Positions 3,366 to 63,509 of a stretch of DNA of 64,000 nt are shown here, in pieces. The position numbers and the translations under genes were made by a program. The stretch is from the NCBI RefSeq assembly GCF_055900595.2, contig NZ_CM148325.1; one strand, given 5' to 3'. Under the pieces are notes generated by a model. It made no database searches. It was not told where the DNA came from and worked only from the letters and a program-made list of their open reading frames with translations. The stretch's first letter is position 1. Each line of letters begins with the position of its first letter.

Positions 3366-4778
3366 TTACTTCCGCAGTTCAGCAGTCCGCTTCTTACCAA
3401 TAAACAACCAGCCCAACCCCAGCGCGATAAACCACAGCGGGGTAACCAGCAGCGCCTGGCGAGTGTCATCTTCCAGTGTCAGCAACACGACCACGAACAC
3501 AAAGAACGCCATACATACCCAGCACATCAGCTTGCCGAGCGGCATCTTGTAGATCGACTTCTCATGCAGATGAGGTCGCTGTTTGCGATACACCAGGTAT
3601 GAGCAAAGGATAATCGTCCAGACGAACATAAACAGAATCGCGGAAACAGTCGTGATCATCGTGAACGCGCCAATTACACTTGGATTCACATACAACATCA
3701 CCACGCCGCCGAGCAGACAGATACAAGAGAAGGTCAGCCCTTTCGCGGGCACGGCGCGCTTAGAAAGTTTAGCGAACGCTTTCGGCGCAACACCTTCCTG
3801 GGCCAGACCAAACAGCATACGGCTGGTAGAGAAGACGCCGCTGTTAGCGGAAGACGCCGCAGAGGTCAGCACCACAAAGTTGATTACGCTGGCAGCCGCA
3901 GGCAAACCCACCAATACAAAAAGTTCAACGAACGGGCTTTTCTCCGGGACTACTGAACTCCACGGCGTCACGGACATAATCACAATCAGCGCGAAGACGT
4001 AGAACATAATGATACGGATCGGAATGGAGTTAATCGCGCGTGGCAGTGATTTCTCCGGATCTTTGGTTTCCGCAGCGGTTGTACCGACCAGCTCAATCCC
4101 CACGAAAGCGAATACCGCTATCTGGAATCCGGCAAAGAAGCCACTTAAACCTTTCGGGAACCAGCCGCCGTCATTCCACAAATGCGCAAACGACGCTTCC
4201 ACACCGGTCGGTGACTGGAAGTGCATCATGACCATGATCAAACCGACAACAATCAGTGACACGATGGCGACAATTTTGATCATCGCAAACCAGAACTCCA
4301 TCTCACCGAACATTTTCACGGTAGCGAGGTTGAGCGTCAGCAGCAGCACTATCACCGCCAGCGAGGCGACCCAGTCGGAGAGATCGGGGAACCAGAACTG
4401 AGCATAGGCCGTGATGGCCACCACGTCCGCCATACCGGTAACCACCCAACAGAACCAGTAGGTCCAGCCAGTAAAATACCCTGCCCACGGCCCCAGTAGA
4501 TCGGAAGCGAAGTCACTAAAAGATTTGTATTCCAGATTCGAAAGCAGCAATTCCCCCATTGCCCGCATCACGAAAAAGAGCATAAAACCGATGATCATAT
4601 AAACGAAGATGATCGACGGTCCGGCAAGACTGATTGTTTTACCGGAACCCATAAACAGCCCTGTACCAATGGCCCCACCAATGGCAATAAGCTGGATATG
4701 TCGGTTTGTGAGATTGCGCCGTAGCGACTGTTCAGCCGGAGCCTGTTCTTCGGCAACGACTTTTACCTGATCTACCAT
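3366..4778 (-). CDS. cycA: D-serine/D-alanine/glycine:H+ symporter CycA (APC family)
   Basis: 470-aa polytopic membrane ORF recognised as E. coli CycA. Confidence 0.93.
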   Translation of the reverse strand: MVDQVKVVAEEQAPAEQSLRRNLTNRHIQLIAIGGAIGTGLFMGSGKTISLAGPSIIFVYMIIGFMLFFVMRAMGELLLSNLEYKSFSDFASDLLGPWAGYFTGWTYWFCWVVTGMADVVAITAYAQFWFPDLSDWVASLAVIVLLLTLNLATVKMFGEMEFWFAMIKIVAIVSLIVVGLIMVMMHFQSPTGVEASFAHLWNDGGWFPKGLSGFFAGFQIAVFAFVGIELVGTTAAETKDPEKSLPRAINSIPIRIIMFYVFALIVIMSVTPWSSVVPEKSPFVELFVLVGLPAAASVINFVVLTSAASSANSGVFSTSRMLFGLAQEGVAPKAFAKLSKRAVPAKGLTFSCICLLGGVVMLYVNPSVIGAFTMITTVSAILFMFVWTIILCSYLVYRKQRPHLHEKSIYKMPLGKLMCWVCMAFFVFVVVLLTLEDDTRQALLVTPLWFIALGLGWLFIGKKRTAELRK

Positions 4779-5924: not shown

Positions 5925-6563
5925 ATGCCCGGGCGCTTTGAACTAAAACCAACCCTGGAGAAAGTCTGGCACGCGCCGGACAATTTTCGCTTCATGGACC
6001 CGCTACCGCCGATGCATCGTCGGGGGATCATTATTGCCGCTATTGTATTGGTGGTCGGATTTCTACTCCCGTCTGATGATACGCCAAACGCGCCGGTGGT
6101 GACGCGTGAAGCACAGTTAGATATTCAGTCGCAATCACAACCGCCGACAGAAGAACAGCTGCGGGCGCAATTAGTCACACCACAAAATGATCCTGATCAG
6201 GTGGCTCCGGTCGCTCCAGAACCGATACAGGAAGGCCAACCGGAAGAGCAGCCGCAAACCTCGCAAGTGCAACCTTTCCAGCCAGATAGCGGAATTGACA
6301 ATCAATGGCGCTCTTATCGTGTCGAACCCGGTAAAACAATGGCGCAGCTGTTCCGCGACCACGGACTGCCCGCTACCGATGTCTATGCAATGGCGCAGGT
6401 AGAAGGCGCAGATAAGCCACTGAGTAATTTGCAAAATGGGCAGATGGTGAAAATCCGCCAGAACGCCAGCGGCGTGGTGACGGGCTTAACCATTGATACG
6501 GGAAATAATCAACAGGTCCTGTTTACCCGCCAGCCGGATGGCAGTTTTATTCGCGCGCGGTAG
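5925..6563 (+). CDS. ytfB: Cell-division-associated OapA-domain protein YtfB
   Basis: ATG at 5925 with AGGAGGA RBS (5913-5919); 212 aa; one TM helix then Pro/Gln-rich linker; in-frame upstream ATG at 5889 also possible. Confidence 0.85.
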
Positions 6564-7194
6564 ATGAAGGGTCAACCAGAAGCCAGCTAAGGATCGTCTC
6601 TTTGATGACCTTACGCCTGGCTTCCAGTGCCTGCGGTGAAACCATACTGATGTGATAAACCAGGCCAAGCGTATGTTGGTTGATCAAATAATATCCTCCA
6701 AGAGCAGCAATATTAATATTCACCTGCAACGGGTCGATATCTGGCTTAAAAATATTGCGCCGTTTGCCTTCAGCTAATAATGACTCCATTAACTGTAAGT
6801 GTGCGTGGTTAATTTCTAAAAGGCGCTGTGATTTTGCATAATGCACCCCTTTACTCTGGTTTTCACTATGCACAATTTTTAAAAACCAGGGGTTAGCAAT
6901 GTAATAATCCCAGGTGAAATCGATAATTTTCTCAATGGCTTTTTGTGGCGGAAGACCTGAGAAATCAAGGGATTTTTCTTTTTGCCGAATATCATTCCAG
7001 GTATATTCCAGCACTTCGATAAATAAATTTTCTTTATTACCAAAGTGATGATAAACCGTCTGTTTACTGCACTCCGCGGCCTTGACGATATTATCGACTC
7101 TGGCCCCTTCGTAACCATATTCGGCAAATTCATTAACCGCACATAACAACAGCTTTTCCTTCAGGCTTTGTACGTTGCTGGTATCAAGATACAT
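6547..7194 (-). CDS. TetR/AcrR-family transcriptional regulator, divergent from the downstream operon (possibly the full-length counterpart of the K-12 ytfA fragment)
   Basis: N-terminal HTH region [48 protein letters not shown] typical of TetR family; start set at ATG 7192-7194 (215 aa); upstream in-frame start at 7254 possible; low GC. Confidence 0.8.
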
Positions 7195-7316
7195 TCCGCT
7201 TCCCCACGTCTTCTTCGTGATGACTATCTTAACCCGATTTGTTAGAAGCTCCACTAAAATGGCTAAAAACTCGCAATTTCATCGGGTTATCAAATGCTCT
7301 GTGATCATTATCGCAT

Positions 7317-7338
7317 ATCAACCAACTAGATGGTTGAT
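7317..7338. promoter_or_regulatory. Candidate TetR operator: perfect 8-6-8 palindrome ATCAACCA-actaga-TGGTTGAT between the divergent regulator and SDR genes
   Basis: Palindrome read directly from sequence, about 70 nt upstream of the SDR start codon and 120 nt upstream of the TetR gene start. Confidence 0.5.
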
Positions 7339-7405
7339 CTTTCTTGCCACACATTGCAAGCTAATCGTCACTTAAGGAAATAATATTCAAAAAGAGGGTT
7401 ATTGT

Positions 7406-8197
7406 ATGAAGTCAACACGTCCTGTTGCTGTCATCACTGGAGCCGCACGTGGTATTGGAAAGGGCTGTGCACTGGAACTTGCGCGTGGCGGATTTAATCT
7501 GCTGATTAATGATCGTCCGGATGCCGACAGCGTAGAAAAATTACATGCCACACAACAAGAATGTCTGGCGGAAGGCGTGGAAGTGATTTGCTTCCCTGCT
7601 GATGTTGGCGATCTCTCCCTTCATGAAGAGATGCTCGACGCGGCGCAAAACCAGTGGGGACGTCTGGACTGTCTACTCAACAACGCAGGCATTTCAGTGA
7701 AAAAACGCGGTGACCTCCTCGACCTCGAACCAGACAGCTTCGACCAAAACATTGCCATTAACACCCGTGCGCCGTTCTTCCTTGCTCAGGCATTCAGTAA
7801 GCGATTACTGGCACAGCCGAAACCGGAAGCAGAACTGCCGCACCGCTCGATTATTTTTGTCAGTTCCATAAACGCCATCATGCTGGCGATGAATCGCGGC
7901 GAATATACCATTGCCAAAACTGCCGTCTCCGCCGCAGCTCGCCTGTTTGCCGCTCGCCTTTGCAATGAACAAATTGGCGTTTATGAAGTGCGCCCTGGCC
8001 TAATCAAAACCGATATGACCATTCCGGCAACGGCTTATTACGACGAACTGATTGCTAAGGGGTTAGTGCCGTGGGGACGTTGGGGTTATCCGGCTGATAT
8101 TGCCTCAACGGTCCGCGCGATGGCGGAAGGCAAACTGATTTACACCTGTGGTCAGGCGGTCGCCATCGACGGCGGCTTAAGTATGCCGCGCTTCTGA
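7406..8197 (+). CDS. Short-chain dehydrogenase/reductase (SDR) family oxidoreductase
   Basis: 263 aa; TGAARGIG cofactor-binding motif, NNAG, and catalytic Ser...YxxxK (YTIAK); RBS GAGGG. Confidence 0.85.
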   Translation: MKSTRPVAVITGAARGIGKGCALELARGGFNLLINDRPDADSVEKLHATQQECLAEGVEVICFPADVGDLSLHEEMLDAAQNQWGRLDCLLNNAGISVKKRGDLLDLEPDSFDQNIAINTRAPFFLAQAFSKRLLAQPKPEAELPHRSIIFVSSINAIMLAMNRGEYTIAKTAVSAAARLFAARLCNEQIGVYEVRPGLIKTDMTIPATAYYDELIAKGLVPWGRWGYPADIASTVRAMAEGKLIYTCGQAVAIDGGLSMPRF

Positions 8198-8206
8198 GGC
8201 TGAATC

Positions 8207-9049
8207 ATGAGAGATCTGTTACAACGCCCGGATTTATTCAGTATCAATACTGCGACACTGGGCTATAAAACACCGCTACCTGCCATTATTGATGCCTGCG
8301 CCGCACGCGGTATTGGCGCGATTGCCCCCTGGCGCAGGGAGTTACAGGGTGAAGATCTCCAACAAATCGCCCGCCAGCTTGCTGCCAGTAACATGAGCGT
8401 TTCCGGTTTGTGCCGTAGCACCTATTACACCGCGCCGACGCTGACGGAACGCAAACTGGCGATTGATGATAACCGCCGGGCGCTGGACGACGCCGCTGTA
8501 CTAAACGCCGCCTGTTATATGCAGGTGGTTGGCGGTCTGCCAATGGGAACAAAAGATCTGTACGAAGCGCGGGAACAAGTGAAACAAGGGATTCGCCAGT
8601 TGCTGCCACATTCGAAAGATGTCGGCGTGCCAATTGCGCTGGAGCCGCTGCACCCGATGACAGCTGCCGATCGCTCTTGCCTGTGCACGTTACGTCAGGC
8701 GCTGGACTGGTGTGATGAACTCGATCCCGATGGGGAGTTTGGCCTCGGCGTGGCGGTAGATGTCTACCACGTTTGGTGGGATCCGGATCTCGCCAGTCAG
8801 ATCCTGCGTGCCGGAAAACGCATCCTCGCGTTTCATGTTTCCGACTGGCTGGTGCCAACCACCGATTTAGTCAATGACCGGGGAATGCCGGGAGATGGCG
8901 TAATCAATATTCCGTCTATTCGTCGCCAGGTAGAAAATGCCGGATTTAACGGTGCTGTGGAACTGGAAATTTTCTCACCGTACTGGTGGCAGCAAGATAT
9001 TAACAGCACGTTGGATATTAGCGTCGATCGCATCGCGCATTATTGCTAA
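8207..9049 (+). CDS. Sugar phosphate isomerase/epimerase-like (xylose isomerase-like TIM barrel) enzyme
   Basis: 280 aa; family assignment from overall sequence character (judged by eye, less certain than neighbours); 9-nt gap after the SDR gene. Confidence 0.6.
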   Translation: MRDLLQRPDLFSINTATLGYKTPLPAIIDACAARGIGAIAPWRRELQGEDLQQIARQLAASNMSVSGLCRSTYYTAPTLTERKLAIDDNRRALDDAAVLNAACYMQVVGGLPMGTKDLYEAREQVKQGIRQLLPHSKDVGVPIALEPLHPMTAADRSCLCTLRQALDWCDELDPDGEFGLGVAVDVYHVWWDPDLASQILRAGKRILAFHVSDWLVPTTDLVNDRGMPGDGVINIPSIRRQVENAGFNGAVELEIFSPYWWQQDINSTLDISVDRIAHYC

Positions 9050-9052
9050 GGA

Positions 9053-9835
9053 ATGATCATGAGTGACCAACCCGTTCTGTTCAGCAGAGCGGCGGCTTCC
9101 TGCCGCCTGACATTGAACCGTGAAGATAAATGTCATGCTATTAATGAAGAAATGATCGAATCTCTCGACCATTATTTAAATGAAATTGAAAACGACACCA
9201 CATTACGATTAGTCGAATTAACGGCAACCGGCGATAAATTCTTTTGTGCGGGCGGCGATATTAAATCGTGGTCGGCCTATTCGCCATTAGATATGGGCAG
9301 AAAATGGATTAAACGCGGCAATGACGTTTTTAATCGCCTGCGCAACTTACCCCAATTAACGGTTGCGAATCTCAACGGTCATACCATCGGCGGCGGTATT
9401 GAACTTGCCTTGTGCTGCGATATTCGTATTGCCCGCCCCAGTGCGAAATTCTCTAATCCGGAAGTAATGCTCGGCATGGTGCCTGGCTGGATGGGCATTG
9501 AACGCGTGCTTAATCAGGTCGGTCCGGTGGTCGGTCGCCAGATGCTGATGCTGGGTAAACGCCTGACGGCGCAGGAAGCTCAGGCGGCGAATTTAATTGA
9601 TGAAGTGGTAGAAAAAGAACAGGTGGAAAGCTGGATGGCGAATCAGTTAGCGCAGCTGGAAAAATGCGGTCCGGTGGCGCTCGCACATATCAAGCAACTG
9701 ATTCTGGCTCTAGAAAATAAACATGCTGATTACCCGCACCAGTTACTGGCTGGATTAATGTCCGCCACTCAGGATTGCCAGCAGGCGACGCGCGCATTTG
9801 CCGAAAAAAGTAGCGTGAGCTTCCAAAATCAATAA
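9053..9835 (+). CDS. Enoyl-CoA hydratase/isomerase (crotonase) family protein
   Basis: 260 aa; FCAGGDIKSW and GHTIGGGIELALCCDIRIA crotonase signature segments; 3-nt gap after the upstream gene. Confidence 0.85.
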   Translation: MIMSDQPVLFSRAAASCRLTLNREDKCHAINEEMIESLDHYLNEIENDTTLRLVELTATGDKFFCAGGDIKSWSAYSPLDMGRKWIKRGNDVFNRLRNLPQLTVANLNGHTIGGGIELALCCDIRIARPSAKFSNPEVMLGMVPGWMGIERVLNQVGPVVGRQMLMLGKRLTAQEAQAANLIDEVVEKEQVESWMANQLAQLEKCGPVALAHIKQLILALENKHADYPHQLLAGLMSATQDCQQATRAFAEKSSVSFQNQ

Positions 9836-9844
9836 GGAAATTGT

Positions 9845-11386
9845 ATGCGTAAGATAACAACCGCCGAGACACTGGCGGCGCAAATTCAGGACGGCGCAAC
9901 CATTGCCATTAGCGGTAATGGCGGCGGCATGGTGGAAGCGGACCATATTCTGGCTGCTATTGAAGCGCGTTTCCTGCAAACCGGACACCCGCGCGATCTG
10001 ACATTAATCCACTCACTGGGCATTGGCGATCGCGACTGCAAAGGCACTAACCGCTTCGCTCATGCAGAGATGCTCAAACGCATCATTGCCGGACATTTTA
10101 CCTGGTCGCCCAAGATGCAGGATCTGGTGAAAAACAATGCTATTGAAGCCTACTGCTTCCCTGGTGGCGTAATTCAGGCACTGCTGCGGGAGATCGGTGC
10201 CGGACGTCCAGGGCTTTTTACCCACGTTGGGCTGGGATCGTTTGTTGATCCGCGCAACGGCGGCGGTAAGTCGAACGCTAGCAGCACTGAGGATCTGGTA
10301 GAACTGATTGAAATCGACGGTGAAACCAAACTTCGTTATCGCCCCTTCAAAGTGGACTACGCGATTTTGCGTGGCACTTATGCCGATCCGCGTGGCAACG
10401 TCAGCCTCGAAGAAGAGGCGATTGATATGGATAGCTATTCCATGGCGCTGGCAGCACACAACAGCGGCGGCAAAGTGTTCGTACAGGTGCGCGATGTGCT
10501 GGAAGCTGGTGCCATTGAACCACGCCGGGTCAAATTACCGGGCATTCTGGTTGATGGCATCGTTGAACACCGCGAACAACCGCAAACCTATCTTGGCGGT
10601 TACGACCTGACCATCAGCGGTCAGCATCGCCGTCTAAGTTCTAACGACGCAATTGAACTGGTTAGTCATCCGGTGCGCCGCCTGATTGCCCGTCGGGCAG
10701 CACGCGAACTGGTGGCTGGCGCTTCAACCAACTTTGGCTTTGGCATTCCCGGCGGCATTCCTGGGGTTGCACTGCGCGAAGGCGTGCCTTATCAAAGTTT
10801 ATGGCTGAGCGTAGAACAGGGTGTACATAACGGCATGATGCTGGATGATGCTCTGTTCGGCTGCGCCCGCAACGCCGATGCCATTATTCCATCACTCGAT
10901 CAATTCGAATTCTACAGTGGCGGAGGGATCGATATCACCTTCCTCGGCATGGGAGAGATGGATCAGTACGGTAACGTCAACGTCTCCCATCTCAATGGCA
11001 ATCTCATTGGCCCCGGCGGATTTCTCGAAATTGCGCAAAACGCCCGTAAAGTGGTGTTCTGCGGCACGTTCGACGCCAAAGGTAGCACGATTGATGTAAC
11101 ACCAGATGGCTTGCATATCGCCCAGTCAGGTCAAATCCCTAAACTGGTTACCCAGGTGGAAAAAATCACTTTTAGCGCCGCCTACGCACAGCAAAGCGGT
11201 CAGGAAGTGTTGTATATCACTGAACGTGCAGTATTCCAGTTAACAGCAGAAGGCGTTGAATTAATTGAAATCGCACCAGGTGTGGAGATTGAGCGCGACA
11301 TTCTGCCGCATATGGCCTTCCGTCCAATTATCAATCAGCCACGCCTGATGGAAAGTAGCCTGTTTACGCCGATGGAGGATGCATGA
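9845..11386 (+). CDS. Family-I CoA-transferase (fused alpha/beta, YdiF / propionate-CoA-transferase-like)
   Basis: 513 aa; N-terminus TAETLAAQIQDGATIAISGNGGGM and size match acyl-CoA:acetate/3-ketoacid CoA-transferases; RBS AAGGA. Confidence 0.75.
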   Translation: MRKITTAETLAAQIQDGATIAISGNGGGMVEADHILAAIEARFLQTGHPRDLTLIHSLGIGDRDCKGTNRFAHAEMLKRIIAGHFTWSPKMQDLVKNNAIEAYCFPGGVIQALLREIGAGRPGLFTHVGLGSFVDPRNGGGKSNASSTEDLVELIEIDGETKLRYRPFKVDYAILRGTYADPRGNVSLEEEAIDMDSYSMALAAHNSGGKVFVQVRDVLEAGAIEPRRVKLPGILVDGIVEHREQPQTYLGGYDLTISGQHRRLSSNDAIELVSHPVRRLIARRAARELVAGASTNFGFGIPGGIPGVALREGVPYQSLWLSVEQGVHNGMMLDDALFGCARNADAIIPSLDQFEFYSGGGIDITFLGMGEMDQYGNVNVSHLNGNLIGPGGFLEIAQNARKVVFCGTFDAKGSTIDVTPDGLHIAQSGQIPKLVTQVEKITFSAAYAQQSGQEVLYITERAVFQLTAEGVELIEIAPGVEIERDILPHMAFRPIINQPRLMESSLFTPMEDA

Positions 11387-13455
11387 GTCAGCTTGATGAC
11401 ACCCTCCTTGATGCGCTGACGCACGTCACTTTCCCGAAGGGTTTTGCACAGGCAGAACCCGCATGGGTTGTCACGGTAGACGGTGTTGATTACCCACTCT
11501 GGCAAACAGATGCCCTGGTAGTCGGCAGTGGTGCAGCCGGGCTGCGTGCAGCTGTGGAACTTAAGCGCCGCCAGCAAAATGTGCTGATCGCCACCGCCGG
11601 GTTATATATGGGGACATCGGCATGTTCTGGTTCCGATAAACAGACGCTGTTTACCGCCGCTACCGCGGGCAACGGCGATAACTTCGCCAAACTGGCAGAG
11701 GCACTGGCGAGCGGCGGCGCAATGGATCACGATACCGCTTATGTTGAAGCGGTTGGTTCCCTGCACACTCTTGGCGGGTTGCAATATCTTGGTCTGGAAT
11801 TACCGGAAGATCGCTATGGCGCAATTCTTCGTTATCAAACCGACCATGACGAAGCCGGGCGAGCAACCTCGTGTGGGCCGCGGACCTCAAGGTTAATGGT
11901 GAAAGTACTGCTGGAAGAAGTACAGCGTCTCGCCATTCCAGTGTTGACCAGTGCAACAGTAATTAAACTGCTGCATCAGCGTGACGAAAACGGTGAAGAC
12001 CGCGTGGCGGGGGCAATCCTCGCGACCGGTCATCGTGCCCATAACCCATGGGGGCTGGCAATTGTGACTGCGCCCAATGTGGTACTGGCAACAGGAGGGC
12101 CTGGCGAGCTTTATCGTGACAGTGTGTACCCACACAAATGTTTCGGCTCGCTGGGGCTGGCGCTGGAAGAAGGTCTGACGTTAACGAATCTGACCGAAAG
12201 CCAGTTTGGTATAGGCACGCCGCGCAGCACCTTTCCGTGGAATTTATCCGGGACTTATGTACAGGTGATCCCATACATCTATTCGGTGGATGCCGGGGGC
12301 AACGAGTATAACTTCCTCGCAGATTACTATCGCACCACCCAGGAGCTGGCTTCAAACATCTTCCGTAAAGGCTATCAGTGGCCGTTTCACGCCACACGAG
12401 TGATGGATTTTGGCTCCAGCTTGTTAGATATGGCAGTAGCGCAAGAGCAGCAATCAGGACGTCAGGTATTTATGGATTTCAATCGCAATCCTGAACCTGT
12501 GCCGGGTGACCTGCCGTTCTCATTAGATCGACTGGACGACGACGTTCGCGCGTATCTGGAAAATAACGACGCTCTGGCACCATCGCCCATCGAACGACTG
12601 CAACGAATGAATCCGCTGTCTATCTCGCTGTATAAGATGCACGGTTACGATCTCACCACGCAGCCATTGCAGTTTGCCATGAATAATCAGCATATGAATG
12701 GCGGCATTGAAGTGGATATCTGGGGGCAAACCTCCCTGTCCGGCTGTTTCGCCGTGGGGGAAGTTGCTGGCACACACGGCGTCACTCGCCCTGGTGGTGC
12801 GGCATTGAATGCCGGGCAGGTTTTTGCTGTTCGTCTGGCACGTTTTATTGGTTGCACGCAAAAACGTAATATTGATGGAGATATAGCACAGCTGGTAGCT
12901 CCGGCACTGGCTTCTATAAGAGAGATCATTACTCAGGCGCACGATAACGGGACCGGGATGCCGTTGTCGGTTGTGAGGGAAAAAATTCAGGCACGAATGT
13001 CTGACCATGCGGGATTTATTTGTCATGCCGATAAAGTCCGACGCGCCACTCGTGATGCCCTGCTATTGAACGAATTTGTGCAACGGCATGGATTGGCAAT
13101 CAAACATGTGGGTGAAGTTGCCGAGCTGTTTATGTGGCGGCATATGGCGCTGACTTCTGCCGCGGTATTAACACAATTAACGCATTATATTGATGCTGGT
13201 GGTGGTAGCCGTGGGGCGCGTATGGTTATTGATCCACAAGGCAAATGCCTACCACAAACTCGTCGCGGCGCAAAAGAAGAATGGCGTTTTCGCTCTGAAC
13301 TCGCTGAAGACAAAAATCACAAATTAACAATTCAATATTCGCAAGGTTCTTTTATTACCGAAGTAAAGTCTTTACGTATGCAACCGTGTATTAACGGTAT
13401 TTACTTTGAAAAAAACTGGCCAGACTTTTTAAAGGGAGACATTTACACACAGTAA
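11383..13455 (+). CDS. FAD-dependent oxidoreductase of the fumarate reductase/succinate dehydrogenase flavoprotein superfamily (soluble, stand-alone)
   Basis: 690 aa; ALVVGSGAAGLRAAVEL dinucleotide-binding motif after a ~45-aa N-terminal extension; C-terminal GEVAGTHGVTRPGGAALNAGQVFA resembles the FrdA/SdhA HGANRLGxNSL segment; start overlaps the CoA-transferase stop (ATGA). Confidence 0.8.
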   Translation: MSQLDDTLLDALTHVTFPKGFAQAEPAWVVTVDGVDYPLWQTDALVVGSGAAGLRAAVELKRRQQNVLIATAGLYMGTSACSGSDKQTLFTAATAGNGDNFAKLAEALASGGAMDHDTAYVEAVGSLHTLGGLQYLGLELPEDRYGAILRYQTDHDEAGRATSCGPRTSRLMVKVLLEEVQRLAIPVLTSATVIKLLHQRDENGEDRVAGAILATGHRAHNPWGLAIVTAPNVVLATGGPGELYRDSVYPHKCFGSLGLALEEGLTLTNLTESQFGIGTPRSTFPWNLSGTYVQVIPYIYSVDAGGNEYNFLADYYRTTQELASNIFRKGYQWPFHATRVMDFGSSLLDMAVAQEQQSGRQVFMDFNRNPEPVPGDLPFSLDRLDDDVRAYLENNDALAPSPIERLQRMNPLSISLYKMHGYDLTTQPLQFAMNNQHMNGGIEVDIWGQTSLSGCFAVGEVAGTHGVTRPGGAALNAGQVFAVRLARFIGCTQKRNIDGDIAQLVAPALASIREIITQAHDNGTGMPLSVVREKIQARMSDHAGFICHADKVRRATRDALLLNEFVQRHGLAIKHVGEVAELFMWRHMALTSAAVLTQLTHYIDAGGGSRGARMVIDPQGKCLPQTRRGAKEEWRFRSELAEDKNHKLTIQYSQGSFITEVKSLRMQPCINGIYFEKNWPDFLKGDIYTQ

Positions 13456-13547
13456 TTTTCAATATTTACTCTGTACCTGATTTTTATTGCCTATTACATG
13501 GAAATACCAACAACCAGGGTTTATTAATATAATTAAAAGGTTTAAAA

Positions 13548-14825
13548 ATGAATAAAATAAAGAATTATCGATGGCATATGATTGCCCTCGTATGCTTTAT
13601 CACTGTAATCAATTATCTGGACAGAACGGCGTTAGGTATTGCGGCTCCAACGATTATGGAGACAACCGGAATAACCAAAGAACAATATTCATGGATTGTC
13701 AGTGCATTCCAGTTGGCCTATACATTGGGGCAACCGGTAATGGGCTTCTTTATTGATACCGTGGGTCTGAAGTTAAGTTTTGCGATATGTGCCGCAATCT
13801 GGGGCCTGGCGACAATGGGGCATGCCTTGACAGGAACATGGTCAGGTCTGGCATTTATGCGCGCCCTGATGGGTTTCAGCGAAGCATCGGCAATTCCTGC
13901 GGGTGTAAAAACCGCATCAACATGGTTCCCGGCAAAAGAGCGTGGCGTGGCGACAGGTGTTTTCAATATGGGCACCTCACTCGGCGCGATGCTTGCTCCA
14001 CCGTTGATTGCCTGGTGCATTATGTTTCATAGCTGGCAATTTGCGTTTATTGTCTCAGGTAGCCTTGCTTTACTCGCGGCTTTATTTTGGTTCTTTTGTT
14101 ATAAAGATCCAAAAGATGCTAAACGCCTTTCTGATGAAGAGCGCCACTATATTGAGTCTGGGCAAGAACAGCATCTTAAAACAGATAAGAAAGAAAAAAC
14201 GTCAATCAAGCATATCCTCAGCCAACGTAATTTCTGGGGGATTGGCATCGCGCGTTTTCTCGCTGACCCGGCATGGGGAACCATTAACTTCTGGGTACCG
14301 ATTTTCTTCGTCGAAACGCTGCATTTTAGCCTGAAAGAAATTGCCATGTTCGTCTGGCTGCCTTTCCTGCTGGGCGATCTCGGCTGTTTAGCCAGTGGTT
14401 TTGTCGCGAAGTTCTTCCACGATCGCGGCGTGAGTTTAATTAACTCACGAAGAATTACCTTCACTATTGCAGCCGTCATTATGATGACGATTGGTCTGGT
14501 GAGTATTGTCGAAAATCCCTACATCGCCGTATTACTGATTAGCATTGGCGCATTCTCGCATCAATGTCTTTCTACTGTTGCAGCAACTCTGGGCGGTGAC
14601 CTATTCAAAAAAGACGAAGTAGCTACCGCTGTGGGTATGGCAGGAGCCTGTGCATGGAGCGGTCAGTTGATTTTCAACCTGTTTATCGGGGCATTCGTTC
14701 ACATTATTGGCTTCGCGCCGTTCTTTATTGCCCTGGCTTTCTTTGACATTATTGGTGCTATTGCGTTGTGGACGCTTATCAAAGTTAAAGATGAAGAACC
14801 ACAAGTACAGTTAGCTACCCACTAA
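13548..14825 (+). CDS. MFS transporter, anion:cation symporter (ACS) subfamily-like (ExuT/DgoT/GudP-type)
   Basis: 425 aa, about 12 TM segments; N-terminal RWHMIALVCFITVINYLDRTALGIAAP is characteristic of ACS-family organic-anion permeases. Confidence 0.8.
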   Translation: MNKIKNYRWHMIALVCFITVINYLDRTALGIAAPTIMETTGITKEQYSWIVSAFQLAYTLGQPVMGFFIDTVGLKLSFAICAAIWGLATMGHALTGTWSGLAFMRALMGFSEASAIPAGVKTASTWFPAKERGVATGVFNMGTSLGAMLAPPLIAWCIMFHSWQFAFIVSGSLALLAALFWFFCYKDPKDAKRLSDEERHYIESGQEQHLKTDKKEKTSIKHILSQRNFWGIGIARFLADPAWGTINFWVPIFFVETLHFSLKEIAMFVWLPFLLGDLGCLASGFVAKFFHDRGVSLINSRRITFTIAAVIMMTIGLVSIVENPYIAVLLISIGAFSHQCLSTVAATLGGDLFKKDEVATAVGMAGACAWSGQLIFNLFIGAFVHIIGFAPFFIALAFFDIIGAIALWTLIKVKDEEPQVQLATH

Positions 14826-14836
14826 TTATTTTAAAT

Positions 14837-14868
14837 AAAAACGCTATAATTGAGGTTATGGCGTTTTT
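14837..14868 (+). terminator. Intrinsic terminator after the MFS transporter gene
   Basis: Hairpin aaaacgctataa/ttatggcgtttt (one mismatch) with short loop, followed by a T-run, 12 nt past the stop codon. Confidence 0.55.
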
Positions 14869-15094
14869 AAAGAAGCTTGAGTTATCGAACCTAGCTTACC
14901 AACGCGTTGTCAGTCATCTCCCCCCTCCCTGGTGCATCGTTATATCCGTGATGAGCGATTTTTGATATTAATATCTTTCACCATCCGCTATTTTCACCAC
15001 TTCAGAAAACAAACTTATTTTTATTAATATCAATTCTTTTTCTTTGAACATTCAACTGCGATATTTGTAAAAATATTAAACAGGCAACAATAAA

Positions 15095-15889
15095 ATGACA
15101 TTACCAACAACTATTTATTCATTCCCCGCATATTTACCTCGTTTTTCGTCCACCGACAAACCAGCAAAACTAAAATTTCATCAATACGCACGCGCTACAT
15201 TACTGTCAAATCGTGGAAGAGATCATAATTGCGATGGCAGACGTACTGTTGAGATCCACAAACTAGATCTCTCAGACTGGCAAGCATTCAATAAGCTAGC
15301 GACGAGGTGTAATACTTACGATGGAATAACAATGAATGGTGATAATTCTTTTGGATGGAACCATGAAGCTACATTAGATAATATTCACGCCCAGAAATAC
15401 AATAAAGCTTACGCGGGTGCGCGGTTAACCGCAGAACTGAAATATTTATTGCAAGATGTCGAATCCTTCGAACCCAACAGTAAATACACAATACACGAAG
15501 TGGTTTTGGGACCTGGTTATGGTACTCCAGACTATACCGGCCAAACGATAGGATACGTTGTAACCCTTCCTGCCCAAATGCCTAATTGCTGGTCATCTGA
15601 ACTACCAACAATCGATCTTTATATCGACCAACTTCGCACTGTTACAGGCGTTTCTAATGCCCTCGGATTCATCATTGCTGCATTGCTAAACGCGTATTCT
15701 GATTTACCCCATGATTTGAAAATTGGTCTACGTTCCTTATCAAATTCAGCCGCAATCTACTCGGGTTTAGGTTTCGAGCGAGTGCCGCAGGACCGAGACA
15801 TAAGGAGTGATCGTATGCATCTAACGCCAGCAAACCATCCTGACTTATGGACACAAGAGAATGGTGAATGGATCTACTTGCGAAATTAA
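15095..15889 (+). CDS. yjfZ: Uncharacterised protein YjfZ
   Basis: 264-aa ORF, AT-rich, preceded by an AT-rich 270-bp intergenic region; size and position next to rplI match K-12 yjfZ. Confidence 0.75.
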   Translation: MTLPTTIYSFPAYLPRFSSTDKPAKLKFHQYARATLLSNRGRDHNCDGRRTVEIHKLDLSDWQAFNKLATRCNTYDGITMNGDNSFGWNHEATLDNIHAQKYNKAYAGARLTAELKYLLQDVESFEPNSKYTIHEVVLGPGYGTPDYTGQTIGYVVTLPAQMPNCWSSELPTIDLYIDQLRTVTGVSNALGFIIAALLNAYSDLPHDLKIGLRSLSNSAAIYSGLGFERVPQDRDIRSDRMHLTPANHPDLWTQENGEWIYLRN

Positions 15890-61700: not shown

Positions 61701-63509
61701 GTGCAAACCTTTCAAGCCGATCTTGCCATTGTAGGCGCCGGTGGCGCGGGATTACGTGCTGCAATTGCTGCCGCGCAGGCAAATCCAAATGCAAAAATCG
61801 CACTAATCTCAAAAGTATACCCTATGCGTAGCCATACCGTTGCTGCAGAAGGGGGCTCCGCCGCTGTCGCGCAGGATCATGACAGCTTCGAATATCACTT
61901 TCACGATACAGTAGCGGGTGGCGACTGGTTGTGTGAGCAGGATGTCGTGGATTATTTCGTCCACCACTGCCCAACCGAAATGACCCAACTGGAACTGTGG
62001 GGATGCCCATGGAGCCGTCGCCCGGATGGTAGCGTCAACGTACGTCGCTTCGGCGGCATGAAAATCGAGCGTACCTGGTTCGCCGCCGATAAGACCGGCT
62101 TCCATATGCTGCACACGCTGTTCCAGACCTCTCTGCAATTCCCGCAGATCCAGCGTTTTGACGAGCACTTCGTACTGGATATTCTGGTTGATGATGGTCA
62201 TGTTCGCGGCCTGGTGGCAATGAACATGATGGAAGGCACGCTGGTGCAGATCCGCGCTAACGCGGTCGTTATGGCTACCGGCGGTGCGGGTCGCGTTTAT
62301 CGTTACAACACCAACGGCGGTATCGTTACCGGTGACGGTATGGGTATGGCGCTAAGCCACGGCGTTCCGCTGCGTGACATGGAATTCGTTCAGTATCACC
62401 CAACCGGTCTGCCAGGTTCCGGTATCTTGATGACCGAAGGCTGCCGCGGTGAAGGCGGTATTCTGGTCAACAAAAATGGCTACCGTTATCTGCAAGATTA
62501 CGGCATGGGCCCGGAAACTCCGCTGGGCGAGCCGAAAAACAAATATATGGAACTGGGTCCACGCGACAAAGTTTCTCAGGCCTTCTGGCACGAATGGCGT
62601 AAAGGCAACACCATCTCCACGCCGCGTGGCGATGTGGTTTATCTCGACCTGCGTCACCTCGGCGAGAAAAAACTGCATGAACGTCTGCCGTTCATCTGCG
62701 AACTGGCGAAAGCGTACGTTGGCGTCGATCCGGTTAAAGAACCGATTCCAGTACGTCCGACCGCACACTACACCATGGGCGGTATCGAAACCGATCAGAA
62801 CTGTGAAACCCGCATTAAAGGTCTGTTCGCCGTGGGTGAATGTTCCTCTGTTGGTCTGCACGGTGCAAACCGTCTGGGCTCCAACTCGCTGGCGGAACTG
62901 GTGGTCTTCGGTCGTCTGGCCGGTGAACAAGCGACAGAACGTGCAGCAACTGCCGGTAATGGCAACGAAGCGGCAATTGAAGCGCAGGCTGCTGGCGTTG
63001 AACAACGTCTGAAAGATCTGGTTAACCAGGATGGCGGCGAAAACTGGGCGAAGATCCGCGACGAAATGGGCCTGGCAATGGAAGAAGGTTGCGGTATCTA
63101 CCGTACGCCGGAACTGATGCAGAAAACCATCGACAAGCTGGCTGAGCTGCAGGAACGCTTCAAGCGCGTGCGCATCACCGACACCTCCAGCGTGTTCAAC
63201 ACCGACCTGCTCTACACCATTGAACTGGGTCACGGTCTGAACGTTGCTGAATGTATGGCGCACTCCGCAATGGCACGTAAAGAGTCCCGCGGCGCGCACC
63301 AGCGTCTGGACGAAGGTTGCACCGAGCGTGACGACGTCAACTTCCTCAAACACACCCTCGCCTTCCGCGATGCTGATGGCACTACTCGCCTGGAGTACAG
63401 CGACGTGAAGATTACTACGCTGCCGCCAGCTAAACGCGTTTACGGTGGCGAAGCGGATGCAGCCGATAAGGCGGAAGCAGCCAATAAGAAGGAGAAGGCG
63501 AATGGCTGA
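61701..63509 (+). CDS. frdA: Fumarate reductase flavoprotein subunit
   Basis: 602-aa ORF from GTG 61701; [22 protein letters not shown] motif; HTVAAEGG covalent-FAD His region. Confidence 0.97.

Follow-up and report, generated by a model that had tools for sequence, protein, structure and literature searches.

A large clade of FrdA/SdhA/NadB-like flavoproteins with an apparently altered active site, represented in an enterobacterial operon next to a CoA-transferase

Introduction

What does a flavoprotein of the fumarate reductase type do in an operon of apparently catabolic genes, where its start codon overlaps the stop codon of a CoA-transferase gene? The question is raised by a 64,000-nucleotide stretch of DNA (NCBI RefSeq assembly GCF_055900595.2, contig NZ_CM148325.1; referred to below as the window), which includes, at nucleotides 11,383 to 13,455 of the plus strand, an open reading frame (ORF) that starts with ATG and codes for a 690-amino acid protein. 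A preliminary description had considered this protein a stand-alone relative of FrdA and SdhA, possibly an enoate-type reductase acting on a CoA thioester or its free-acid partner.

The flavoprotein probably represents a new enzyme activity, since it belongs to a large family that has lost catalytic residues of fumarate reductase and is found in sugar-acid operons. The explanation that we tentatively prefer, and that could well prove wrong, is that it holds flavin adenine dinucleotide (FAD) non-covalently, clamps a free carboxylate through H437 and R469, and would catalyze a two-electron reaction at the neighboring carbon or carbons of a hydroxylated, sugar-type acid, together with a short-chain dehydrogenase/reductase (SDR) and a triose-phosphate isomerase (TIM)-barrel protein encoded in the same operon.

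Results and Discussion

The gene and its product

The ATG of the gene lies in the tetranucleotide ATGA (11,383 to 11,386), where it overlaps the TGA of a 513-amino acid ORF (9,845 to 11,386) encoding the family I CoA-transferase, and the sequence GGAGGA is located 5 nt 5′ of it. The gene was found in 3,136 of 5,426 complete E. coli genomes (about 58%) at 80–99% nucleotide identity, the best records reaching 96–97%, and relatives are present in at least 596 species genomes (one genome per species; 596 of the first 600 matches were confirmed), which argues against a chance ORF. The translation includes the dinucleotide-binding motif (residues 46–60, VVGSGAAGLRAAVEL) behind an N-terminal extension, as expected from the preliminary description. 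The GxGxxG region, VVGSGAAG, begins at residue 46 versus residue 10 in the FrdA encoded in the window, so that the extension amounts to about 36 residues (residues 1–41 are extra). In the AlphaFold model described below it is folded as a helix (6–13) and a beta-hairpin (28–41); it is common to close relatives, and distant relatives start aligning at about residues 29–43. Toward the C-terminus (residues 459–482, GEVAGTHGVTRPGGAALNAGQVFA) the similarity to fumarate reductase proposed earlier was recovered, as GEVAGTHGVTRPGGAALNAGQV aligned with an FrdA segment in the profile alignments.

The sole significant Pfam domain is FAD_binding_2 (PF00890; residues 43–475, E = 2.3e-25). No iron-sulfur or membrane-anchor subunit gene was found among the neighbors, which encode an SDR, a TIM barrel, a crotonase, a CoA-transferase and a major facilitator superfamily (MFS) transporter, and the Kyte-Doolittle values of 19-mers do not exceed 1.2, so that a membrane segment is unlikely; the product can thus still be described as a stand-alone, soluble-looking flavoprotein. 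Its earlier designation as a diverged paralogue of the respiratory enzyme also holds, the true frdA of the window being a separate gene at nucleotides 61,701 to 63,509 that codes for a 602-amino acid FrdA.

An AlphaFold model built on 45 diverse relatives (pLDDT 92.7, pTM 0.94) has the complete four-domain SdhA/FrdA/NadB architecture, i.e. an FAD domain, a cap, a helical domain and a C-terminal domain. Foldseek matched the model to FrdA and SdhA with E~1e-31, which confirms the proposed superfamily, at 17–18% identity over about 670 columns (650–700) and with target-normalized TM scores of 0.7–0.8; the values for E. coli FrdA were 0.77–0.79. NadB and the adenylylsulfate (APS) and phosphoadenylylsulfate (PAPS) reductases came next. 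The shorter enzymes of the Fcc3/UrdA/KstD type were not among the best 50 Foldseek matches in the PDB, and TcuA and KstD were found neither among these nor among the 25 of 39 NCBIfam families listed. By its helical and C-terminal domains the protein falls in the SdhA/FrdA/NadB/TfrA branch and not in the Fcc3/UrdA/ArdA/KstD branch named earlier.

In comparison with E. coli FrdA and SdhA, the four-domain fold, the GxGxxG motif, the H355/R390-type pair, the HG-x-x-R-x-G loop and the C-terminal S-R-G motif are shared. On the other hand, the flavoprotein is only about 17–18% identical to them, lacks the covalent-FAD histidine, His232, Arg287 and the iron-sulfur and anchor partners, and has the extra N-terminal segment as well as a larger, remodelled cap. 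Its best sequence-level relatives are TfrA (126 bits against a cutoff of 718, the best NCBIfam score) and NadB (models up to 108 bits against cutoffs of 452–639; TIGR00551, 99.6 against 452.75), and the best solved one is a NadB (PDB 5KXJ, E = 3e-9). The FrdA/SdhA-type models scored 38–81 bits against cutoffs of 567–933, sdhA_frdA giving 81 against 567, and the flavocytochrome-c model 36.7 against 285. Since all scores are far below the curated NCBIfam cutoffs, the protein cannot be counted among the enzymes of fumarate or aspartate or the known enoate enzymes; RefSeq names it merely ‘FAD-dependent oxidoreductase’ or ‘FAD-binding protein’. The family thus belongs to the SdhA/FrdA/NadB superfamily by fold and Pfam domain, and yet fails the tests that define FrdA/SdhA, NadB and the characterized enoate reductases.

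Residues of the active site

Catalytic residues were mapped by aligning a family profile with the FrdA of the window and with a profile made of FrdA, SdhA and NadB, and conservation was counted in a 45-sequence alignment. The features expected of an FAD protein are present: G48 and G50 of GxGxxG are invariant, G53 is found in 36 of 45 sequences, and a GE-x-AG motif is invariant. The two residues that bind the substrate carboxylate in FrdA, His355 and Arg390, correspond to H437 and R469, both invariant (45/45). His44, the site of the covalent 8-alpha-N3-histidyl FAD link, is replaced by G77 (Gly in 42 and Ser in 3 of the 45 sequences). The substrate-binding His232 falls on an invariant glycine, G276, or on a gap, and Arg287, the proton donor within G-P-R-D, on S345/S346 of G-S-S-L-x-D, where Ser-Ser is invariant. 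The loss of the His232 and Arg287 equivalents was seen in both profile alignments, which compare sequences only. Position 298, an arginine in clade B (see below), had been considered as an alternative equivalent of Arg287 and was rejected because its column matches the Arg248 region of FrdA, Arg287 being aligned with G-S-S.

We take Arg402 of Fcc3 to be the counterpart of FrdA Arg287, and assume the rest of the Fcc3-to-FrdA numbering likewise. The other residues that are invariant in the family are S79, G83-S-D-K-Q-T88, Y151, T153-D154, W286-N287, S289-G290, Q294, K329-G-Y331 (as K329-G-Y-x-W-P), W333-P334, G344, S345-S346, D349, R405 and N410, a set rich in polar and aromatic side chains that would be consistent with a hydroxylated substrate. 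In their comparison of reductases for fumarate, methacrylate, urocanate and acrylate, Bertsova et al. found an arginine conserved at the proton-donor position; they described a Motif I that binds the carboxylate (Fcc3 Arg402, His504 and Arg544), a Motif II (His365 and Thr377) and a Motif III that serves as proton relay. The flavoprotein retains two-thirds of Motif I, has lost Motif II, and has a lost or changed Motif III. The catalytic-residue alignment called for by the preliminary description thus gave a divided answer, with the carboxylate pair kept and the covalent-FAD histidine, His232 and Arg287 lost, and the replacement of the last two by Gly or a gap and by Ser-Ser argues against a classical enoate-type reductase.

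The NadB similarity suggests another possibility, an oxidase of the alpha-carbon C-N or C-O bond of an amino or ether sugar acid, such as glucosaminate, an opine-like conjugate or an anhydro-aldonate, to yield a 2-keto acid. L-Aspartate oxidase is among the best NCBIfam and PDB sequence matches and is also a soluble, stand-alone enzyme. The FAD of NadB is non-covalent, as is predicted here, and with O2, fumarate or a quinone as acceptor the enzyme could do without a partner protein; in addition, rhizobia and Rhodobacteraceae often encode clade A proteins next to sugar transporters and GMC oxidoreductases. We give this explanation very little weight, as the equivalents of the catalytic His244 and Arg290 of NadB, which belong to the cap and hinge, are absent from the flavoprotein in the alignment with the NadB-containing profile, the scores are four- to six-fold under the NadB cutoffs, and the recurrent neighborhoods include no deaminase or aminotransferase, save a single aminotransferase in one locus (L003). 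The genomic context of the flavoprotein also differs from those of NadB and TfrA, being catabolic rather than one of NAD biosynthesis or methanogen thiol metabolism.

Relatives of the flavoprotein and their genomic neighborhoods

A search of 1.84 billion cluster representatives yielded 3,003 matches with E≤0.001, of which 419 (50%-identity clusters) had E≤1e-30, most of them 600–700 amino acids long. The AFDB50 neighbors, including proteins of Succinatimonas hippei, Enterocloster bolteae, Halanaerobium, Treponema and Coriobacterium, are all unnamed ‘FAD-binding proteins’. Two clades separate cleanly. Clade A proteins are 52–100% identical to the window protein and have A80-C81, V293 and M438, with position 298 being for the most part Tyr in the Enterobacterales and His in the alphaproteobacteria; the proteins of clade B are 36–41% identical to it and mostly have Arg298 and N438.

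For the neighborhood counts, ORFs were called in 80 loci and clustered, and the clusters were named by NCBIfam and PDB sequence searches. The commonest neighbor is an orthologue of the window SDR, found in 34 loci across phyla, 37–74% identical to it and usually adjacent to the flavoprotein gene. A Gfo/Idh/MocA dehydrogenase lies directly upstream in 21 loci (levoglucosan dehydrogenase-like below the cutoff, and related to scyllo-inositol and L-glucose dehydrogenases), a KdgK-like kinase directly downstream in 16, and an Eda-like aldolase is present in 15. About 18 loci include a LacI regulator and a CUT1 ABC sugar system whose binding protein is nearest to glucose-binding proteins, 15–16 alphaproteobacterial loci include GMC oxidoreductases of two types, and a PF01261 TIM barrel occurs in 8, among them Enterobacterales, a Lentisphaeria metagenome-assembled genome (MAG), a betaproteobacterium and a planctomycete. 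Proteins of the old yellow enzyme (OYE) type are found in 16 loci, all of clade B. Characteristic gene orders are SDR-Gfo-TIM-MFS-flavoprotein next to tetR in Pseudescherichia and Phytobacter; SDR-TIM-flavoprotein-transporter next to tetR in Brenneria; ABC-GMC-GMC-Dabb-LacI-Gfo-flavoprotein-KdgK(-Eda) with overlapping stop and start codons in Rhodobacteraceae and Rhizobiales; OYE/GltD-SDR-Eda-BNR-flavoprotein in Phycisphaerae; and OYE-flavoprotein-SDR(-KdgK) in various anaerobes. The composition of these neighborhoods indicates that the family belongs to carbohydrate or sugar-acid catabolism and is not respiratory.

The known routes by which hexuronates and unsaturated uronates are converted to 2-keto-3-deoxygluconate (KDG), i.e. 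UxaC/UxuB/UxuA, KduI/KduD, KdgK and Eda, resemble the window operon and its relatives in having a hexuronate- or galactonate-type transporter, an isomerase-like TIM barrel and an SDR, the latter with KduD-level similarity (E~1e-33, a value generic for SDRs), and in the KdgK-like and Eda-like genes beside family members. They differ in that the window operon encodes neither a canonical enzyme of these routes nor a kinase or an aldolase, has a crotonase and a CoA-transferase in addition, and includes a flavoprotein that has no place in them.

These neighborhoods could also be explained if the protein were a non-redox or redox-neutral FAD-dependent hydro-lyase that, with the help of its conserved carboxylate pair, removes the alpha proton and eliminates the beta-hydroxyl of an aldonate or 5-keto-aldonate, yielding a 2-keto-3-deoxy acid. 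Fructuronate, for example, would give 2,5-diketo-3-deoxygluconate, to be converted by the SDR to KDG, and TIM barrel, flavoprotein and SDR would together replace the UxaC/UxuB/UxuA route. Precedents are oleate hydratase and 2-haloacrylate hydratase, which are flavin-dependent, and the hydration of fumarate by Fcc3 and FrdA. No recognized sugar-acid dehydratase was found among the recurrent neighbors in operons with KdgK-like and Eda-like genes, the coupled order in alphaproteobacteria is Gfo, flavoprotein, KdgK and sometimes Eda, the carboxylate clamp has survived the loss of the hydride- and proton-relay residues, clade A operons encode no electron partner, and the hexuronate-type binding protein described below supports a uronate-like substrate. 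We nevertheless regard this purely inferential scheme as quite unlikely: the strict conservation of the FAD motifs and the tight coupling of clade B to OYE/iron-sulfur flavoproteins both suggest real electron transfer, the dehydratase genes could be elsewhere in the genomes, and the crotonase and CoA-transferase of the window would be left unexplained. It is equally doubtful that the family as a whole, rather than being a classical oxidoreductase, is an overlooked, FrdA-derived replacement for UxuA/UxaA/DgoD-type dehydratases, making 2-keto-3-deoxy sugar acids as a hydro-lyase or, redox-neutrally, with an OYE/iron-sulfur partner. If true, it would define an alternative order of hexuronate or aldonate catabolism (isomerize, dehydrate, reduce), grafted onto a CoA-transferase/crotonase branch in Enterobacteriaceae.

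Other features of these loci deserve mention. In alphaproteobacterial loci (L017, L021, L033 and some 15 others) the genes for Gfo, flavoprotein and KdgK follow a conserved block consisting of two GMC oxidoreductases, one of them just under the cutoff of a choline dehydrogenase-type subfamily model, a 102-amino acid Dabb-like protein and a glucose-type ABC transporter. In five Phycisphaerae loci (L050, L058, L064, L072 and L077) a 500-amino acid protein with a hydrophobic N-terminal stretch is encoded directly upstream of the flavoprotein; it looks BNR-like by eye only and has no NCBIfam match, and a methylthioribose-1-phosphate isomerase-like gene often follows. In clade B, the gene for an OYE-type TIM-barrel protein abuts that of the flavoprotein, overlaps it by 4 nt or is fused to it (P0147, 1,084 amino acids; Table 1). 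The OYE partner has a Cys-x2-Cys-x2-Cys-x11-12-Cys motif and no NAD(P)H domain, and the clade B flavoprotein presumably occupies the position of the NAD(P)H/FAD module of dienoyl-CoA reductase-type enzymes.

The CoA-transferase and the nature of the substrate

The overlap with the CoA-transferase gene was part of the earlier proposal. The transferase aligns with YdiF over residues 6–508, has the same two-domain single-chain architecture, and its E324 falls on YdiF E333, which we take to be the glutamate that forms the thioester. It can be considered a single-chain family I enzyme of the YdiF/Pct type that is found in another operon and is translationally coupled to a flavoprotein, whereas the known contexts of YdiF and Pct are the acyl-CoA dehydrogenase and electron-transfer flavoprotein genes of ydiFO-QRST and lactoyl-CoA dehydratase, respectively. 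Orthologues of the transferase and of the crotonase are absent from most of the 80 loci. Besides the Escherichia/Salmonella/Klebsiella operon, an association with a CoA-transferase was found in about five loci: a Pct-type transferase, 39–41% identical, lies within 1–3 kb in loci of Devosia, Rhodobacter, Rubellimicrobium and a Desulfobacterales MAG (L029, L038, L043 and L063), the last of which also includes acyl-CoA dehydrogenase and MaoC-like genes. In a Planctomycetota MAG (L078, nucleotides 6,652 to 10,731) a class III (CaiB/Frc-type) transferase is encoded directly upstream of a clade B flavoprotein and an Eda-like aldolase directly downstream, which is a second, independent kind of association. 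The association is thus lineage-specific and yet has arisen more than once. The suggested link to CoA metabolism therefore stands in part, for the overlapping transferase keeps its catalytic glutamate, and falls in part, because the link is not a family trait; this and the sugar-acid neighbors in many loci make a free hydroxylated acid a likelier substrate than a CoA thioester.

It is on this evidence that a soluble enoate-type reductase (acting on acrylate, crotonate, cinnamate or urocanate) or enoyl-CoA reductase has to be weighed. Such an enzyme would act in stoichiometric partnership with the CoA-transferase on a short unsaturated acid or its thioester, and together with the crotonase and the SDR would complete a cycle resembling beta-oxidation in which the flavoprotein takes the place of acyl-CoA dehydrogenase. 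Three genera have kept the ATGA overlap with a transferase of the Pct/YdiF type, crotonase, SDR and transferase are all in one operon, two classes of CoA-transferase recur beside the family, and acyl-CoA dehydrogenase and MaoC-like genes are found in two loci (L063 and L027). Moreover, non-covalent FAD is typical of one-way reductases. The coupling or fusion of clade B to OYE-type modules also recalls the architecture of the NADH:fumarate reductase of K. pneumoniae and of the NADH:acrylate reductase ARD of V. harveyi (an OYE-like domain combined with FMN_bind plus FAD_binding_2), which are likewise soluble, have non-covalent FAD and act beside a carboxylate. We judge this explanation unlikely all the same. 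The position of Fcc3 Arg402/FrdA Arg287 aligns with an invariant Ser of the family; the window protein, a clade A member, has no cytochrome, FMN_bind or OYE module for electron input, and the operon encodes none; the OYE partners of clade B carry the four-cysteine motif instead of an FMN_bind domain; CoA genes are missing from the vicinity of most family members, which lie beside sugar-catabolic genes instead; the flavocytochrome-c score is far under its cutoff; and the TIM barrel is left without a role.

Transporters of the operons point to a uronate- or aldonate-like acid as the substrate. The best solved relative of the window MFS protein is DgoT (142 bits), and the protein scores 315 bits, below the cutoff of 395, with TIGR00893, the model of the D-galactonate transporter subfamily. 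Tripartite ATP-independent periplasmic (TRAP) systems flank the flavoprotein gene in four loci (L004, L033, L037 and L048), including those of a Rhizobiales MAG, Pelagimonas and a Bacillota MAG. In L004, which is from E. coli SCPM-O-B-8794, the structures nearest to the DctP binding protein are 4OVR, 4X8R, 4N8Y, 4N15/4N17, 4N91 and 4MIJ/4MHF. According to the respective papers, 4X8R is glucuronate-bound, 4N8Y galacturonate-bound, 4N91 a glucuronate binder and 4MHF a binder of glucuronate and galacturonate, whereas 4N15 was the template used for modelling a hexuronate binder. Since the transporters vary, members of the family may act on related but different compounds.

Some transporters fit a hydroaromatic or cyclitol carboxylate. 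In this case the enterobacterial operon would process an acid of the quinate, shikimate or dehydroshikimate type by way of CoA thioesters, with the flavoprotein either reducing or creating the ring C=C bond conjugated to the carboxylate, the TIM barrel would resemble a dehydroshikimate dehydratase, and the SDR, crotonase and transferase would act as in cyclohexanecarboxyl-CoA formation. PF01261 has dehydroshikimate dehydratases among its members, and shikimate itself is an alpha,beta-unsaturated carboxylate. A PcaK-like aromatic-acid:H+ symporter (369 bits) follows tetR, SDR, TIM and flavoprotein genes in Brenneria, the MFS protein of the Pseudescherichia type matches the same family, and all five enzyme types of the window would be given a role. 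These points do not outweigh the KdgK-like, Eda-like, glucose-type ABC and hexuronate-type TRAP neighbors, which indicate open-chain sugar acids; in addition, the nearest solved relatives of the TIM barrel are uncharacterized ‘sugar isomerases’ and not AsbF or QuiC, and no aromatic-ring enzymes are encoded nearby. A hydroaromatic substrate is in our opinion decidedly improbable.

A possible role of the flavoprotein

The route that we prefer for a hydroxylated sugar-type acid can be outlined as follows. The anion transporter of the operon would import the acid, the MFS protein being the likely uptake system, and the hexuronate-type TRAP binding protein of L004 suggests that it is a uronate- or aldonate-like compound. 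A cytoplasmic, stand-alone flavoprotein, whose FAD is predicted to be non-covalent, would hold one substrate carboxylate over the flavin with H437 and R469, as the pair does in FrdA and Fcc3. The remainder of the fumarate site appears to have been rebuilt with the polar and aromatic residues that are invariant in the family, such as W286-N287, Q294, K329-G-Y-x-W-P and G344-S-S-x-x-D349. While the fold, the residue pattern, the gene neighborhoods, the synteny and the K-12 deletion are observations, we infer the class of substrate, the direction of the redox reaction, the donor or acceptor of electrons and the sequence of steps. A two-electron step would take place at the carbon or carbons beside the carboxylate of the free acid, and the flavoprotein would team up with the co-conserved SDR and the TIM-barrel protein, which is similar to isomerases and dehydratases. 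In other lineages this core would feed enzymes resembling KdgK and Eda. The operon of Escherichia, Salmonella and Klebsiella seems to have gained a crotonase and a CoA-transferase of the YdiF/Pct type as a branch that handles a precursor or a product; as both genes are in the operon, part of the enterobacterial route probably proceeds via a CoA thioester. The 4-nt overlap would couple translation of the transferase and the flavoprotein, and the divergent TetR repressor probably silences the operon when the inducer is absent.

Several observations weigh against this explanation. The KdgK-like and Eda-like neighbors are below their NCBIfam cutoffs, no evident function can be assigned to the crotonase and the CoA-transferase if the sugar-acid route is a classical one, and the operon encodes no electron-transfer partner. 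The binding protein of the ABC system beside alphaproteobacterial family members is of the glucose type, the Brenneria operon ends in the PcaK-like symporter, and the label ‘hexuronate-like’ derives mainly from one allelic TRAP system. Finally, the cap alignment, at about 17% identity, is unstable, and the two profile alignments differ around residues 276–300; as a consequence K329, Y298, R360 or another residue may supply the missing acid/base in three dimensions.

The operon and its regulator

The flavoprotein gene is part of a seven-gene locus (Table 1). In REL606 the RefSeq product names are SDR, ‘sugar phosphate isomerase/epimerase family’, enoyl-CoA hydratase, ‘acyl CoA:acetate/3-ketoacid CoA transferase’, ‘FAD-dependent oxidoreductase’ and MFS. 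The REL606 homologue of the TetR-family regulator is 215 amino acids long, and the true start of the latter is therefore probably about 60 nt inside the ORF. A palindrome in the intergenic region between the tetR and SDR genes is a candidate operator, a function suggested by its sequence and location. Its core is kept only in the E. coli loci L001 and L004; the exact core was not found in the Klebsiella, Salmonella or E. albertii loci. The TIM-barrel protein matched the uncharacterized structures 3QC0 and 3JU2 with 291 bits, and a literature search on its solved relatives SMc04130/3JU2 and 7VPF found nothing informative. In the crotonase, GGGIEL and NPEV were read by eye as the two motifs that include the catalytic glutamates of crotonases. 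No riboswitch or other RNA family was found by Rfam in nucleotides 6,000 to 15,500, and consensus promoter and terminator sites were no more numerous than in shuffled sequence.

Table 1. Features of the flavoprotein locus in the window and, for comparison, clade B loci with coupled OYE-type and flavoprotein genes
Feature	Coordinates	Strand	Remarks
TetR-family regulator	6547..7254	-	Divergent; longest ORF 235 aa; PF00440 and PF17938 in Klebsiella and Salmonella homologues; REL606 annotation TetR/AcrR
Candidate operator, 22-bp palindrome ATCAACCAACT/AGATGGTTGAT	7317..7338		TetR-SDR intergenic; 11-nt arms, 91% complementary, no spacer
SDR, PRK12745 type	7406..8197	+	NF009386, 420.6 bits (cutoff 250); most conserved neighbor of the flavoprotein family
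Xylose isomerase-like TIM barrel, PF01261	8207..9049	+	Sugar isomerase/epimerase/dehydratase superfamily; weak epimerase/isomerase matches
Crotonase-family enoyl-CoA hydratase/isomerase	9053..9835	+	Short-chain enoyl-CoA hydratase models ≤150 bits, all below cutoff; PF00378 in homologues
Single-chain family I CoA-transferase, YdiF/Pct/FadX type	9845..11386	+	383.8 bits to YdiF (2AHU); stop overlaps flavoprotein start
Flavoprotein, clade A, FrdA/SdhA/NadB superfamily	11383..13455	+	690 aa; GxGxxG 48-53; H437/R469; G-S-S 344-346; G276
MFS transporter, anion:cation symporter family (DgoT/sialin relatives)	13548..14825	+	TIGR00893, 315 bits (cutoff 395)
OYE-flavoprotein, locus L081	1060-4499		Clade B
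OYE-flavoprotein, locus L059	7472-11013		Clade B
OYE-flavoprotein, locus L066	2624-6226		Clade B
OYE-flavoprotein, locus L080	6001-9308		Clade B
OYE-flavoprotein, locus L003	8001-11255		Clade B; P0147

The BL21 orthologue of the transferase, ECD_04073, was described as 46% identical to the propionyl-CoA transferase of M. elsdenii and as not expressed in the transcriptomes of that study (PMC6150544), a silence that fits repression by TetR. Beyond this remark, searches of the literature by accession, operon products and locus tags found nothing published on the operon. It was also considered whether the operon could be the gene cluster of the Klebsiella michiganensis acyl-CoA pathway for deoxyribonate, which was rejected; that cluster includes a CoA synthetase, a thiolase, a lactonase and a glycerate kinase, and no flavoprotein.

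Distribution and loss of the operon

The window is Escherichia chromosomal DNA. E. coli REL606 and BL21 have the same seven genes, located between ytfB and rplI, and Klebsiella oxytoca and some Salmonella enterica carry this operon in the same position, the transferase and flavoprotein genes again overlapping by 4 nt. The operon is therefore an ancient locus of the enterobacteria rather than an island acquired recently. In E. coli K-12 a clean deletion of about 8 kb has removed the equivalent of nucleotides 6,950 to 14,926 of the window (L084, nucleotides 3,590 to 3,694). The K-12 pseudogene ytfA corresponds to the C-terminal 133 codons of the tetR gene of the operon (97% identity), and yjfZ is present both in K-12 and in the window (15,095 to 15,889). 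A weak tblastn match of the SDR was also noted in K-12 (L084, 3,587 to 3,730; 52% over 48 amino acids, opposite strand).

A second common E. coli allele codes for a 693-amino acid flavoprotein that is 92% identical to that of the window (cluster P0006, 4,164 member sequences). In strain SCPM-O-B-8794 (L004, 11,103 to 13,946) it is accompanied by TRAP genes for DctQ, DctM and DctP where the window has the MFS gene. Some E. coli records (H5 and H6) have an IS1 inserted in the region matched by the flavoprotein query, annotated as FAD-binding protein plus IS1 transposase. An apparent 1,078-amino acid fusion of CoA-transferase and flavoprotein in E. coli (P0003) was rejected as a natural fusion because an in-frame deletion removes the C-terminus of the transferase; it is thus a damaged allele and no evidence for a complex. 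The IS1 insertions, the deletion of the P0003 type and the K-12 deletion together indicate that the operon is dispensable and often decaying.

Significance

The FrdA/SdhA/NadB fold is among the best-studied flavoenzyme scaffolds, and the clade described here lacks residues regarded as essential for the chemistry of that family. It comprises hundreds of sequence clusters in Proteobacteria, Planctomycetota, Lentisphaerota and Firmicutes with no assigned function. What is new is this large clade with an altered active site, as judged from solid comparative evidence, and its unusual coupling to a CoA-transferase. The chemistry may be simply that of another acid dehydrogenase; should the enzyme prove to be an ordinary dehydrogenase of one further acid, thousands of genomes would still gain a useful annotation. 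As the operon is present in E. coli B and BL21 and naturally deleted in K-12, the question can be addressed directly in standard strains. Identification of the substrate would explain the unusual association of flavoprotein and CoA-transferase, and would add a missing step in the catabolism of sugar acids or related acids by gut and environmental bacteria.

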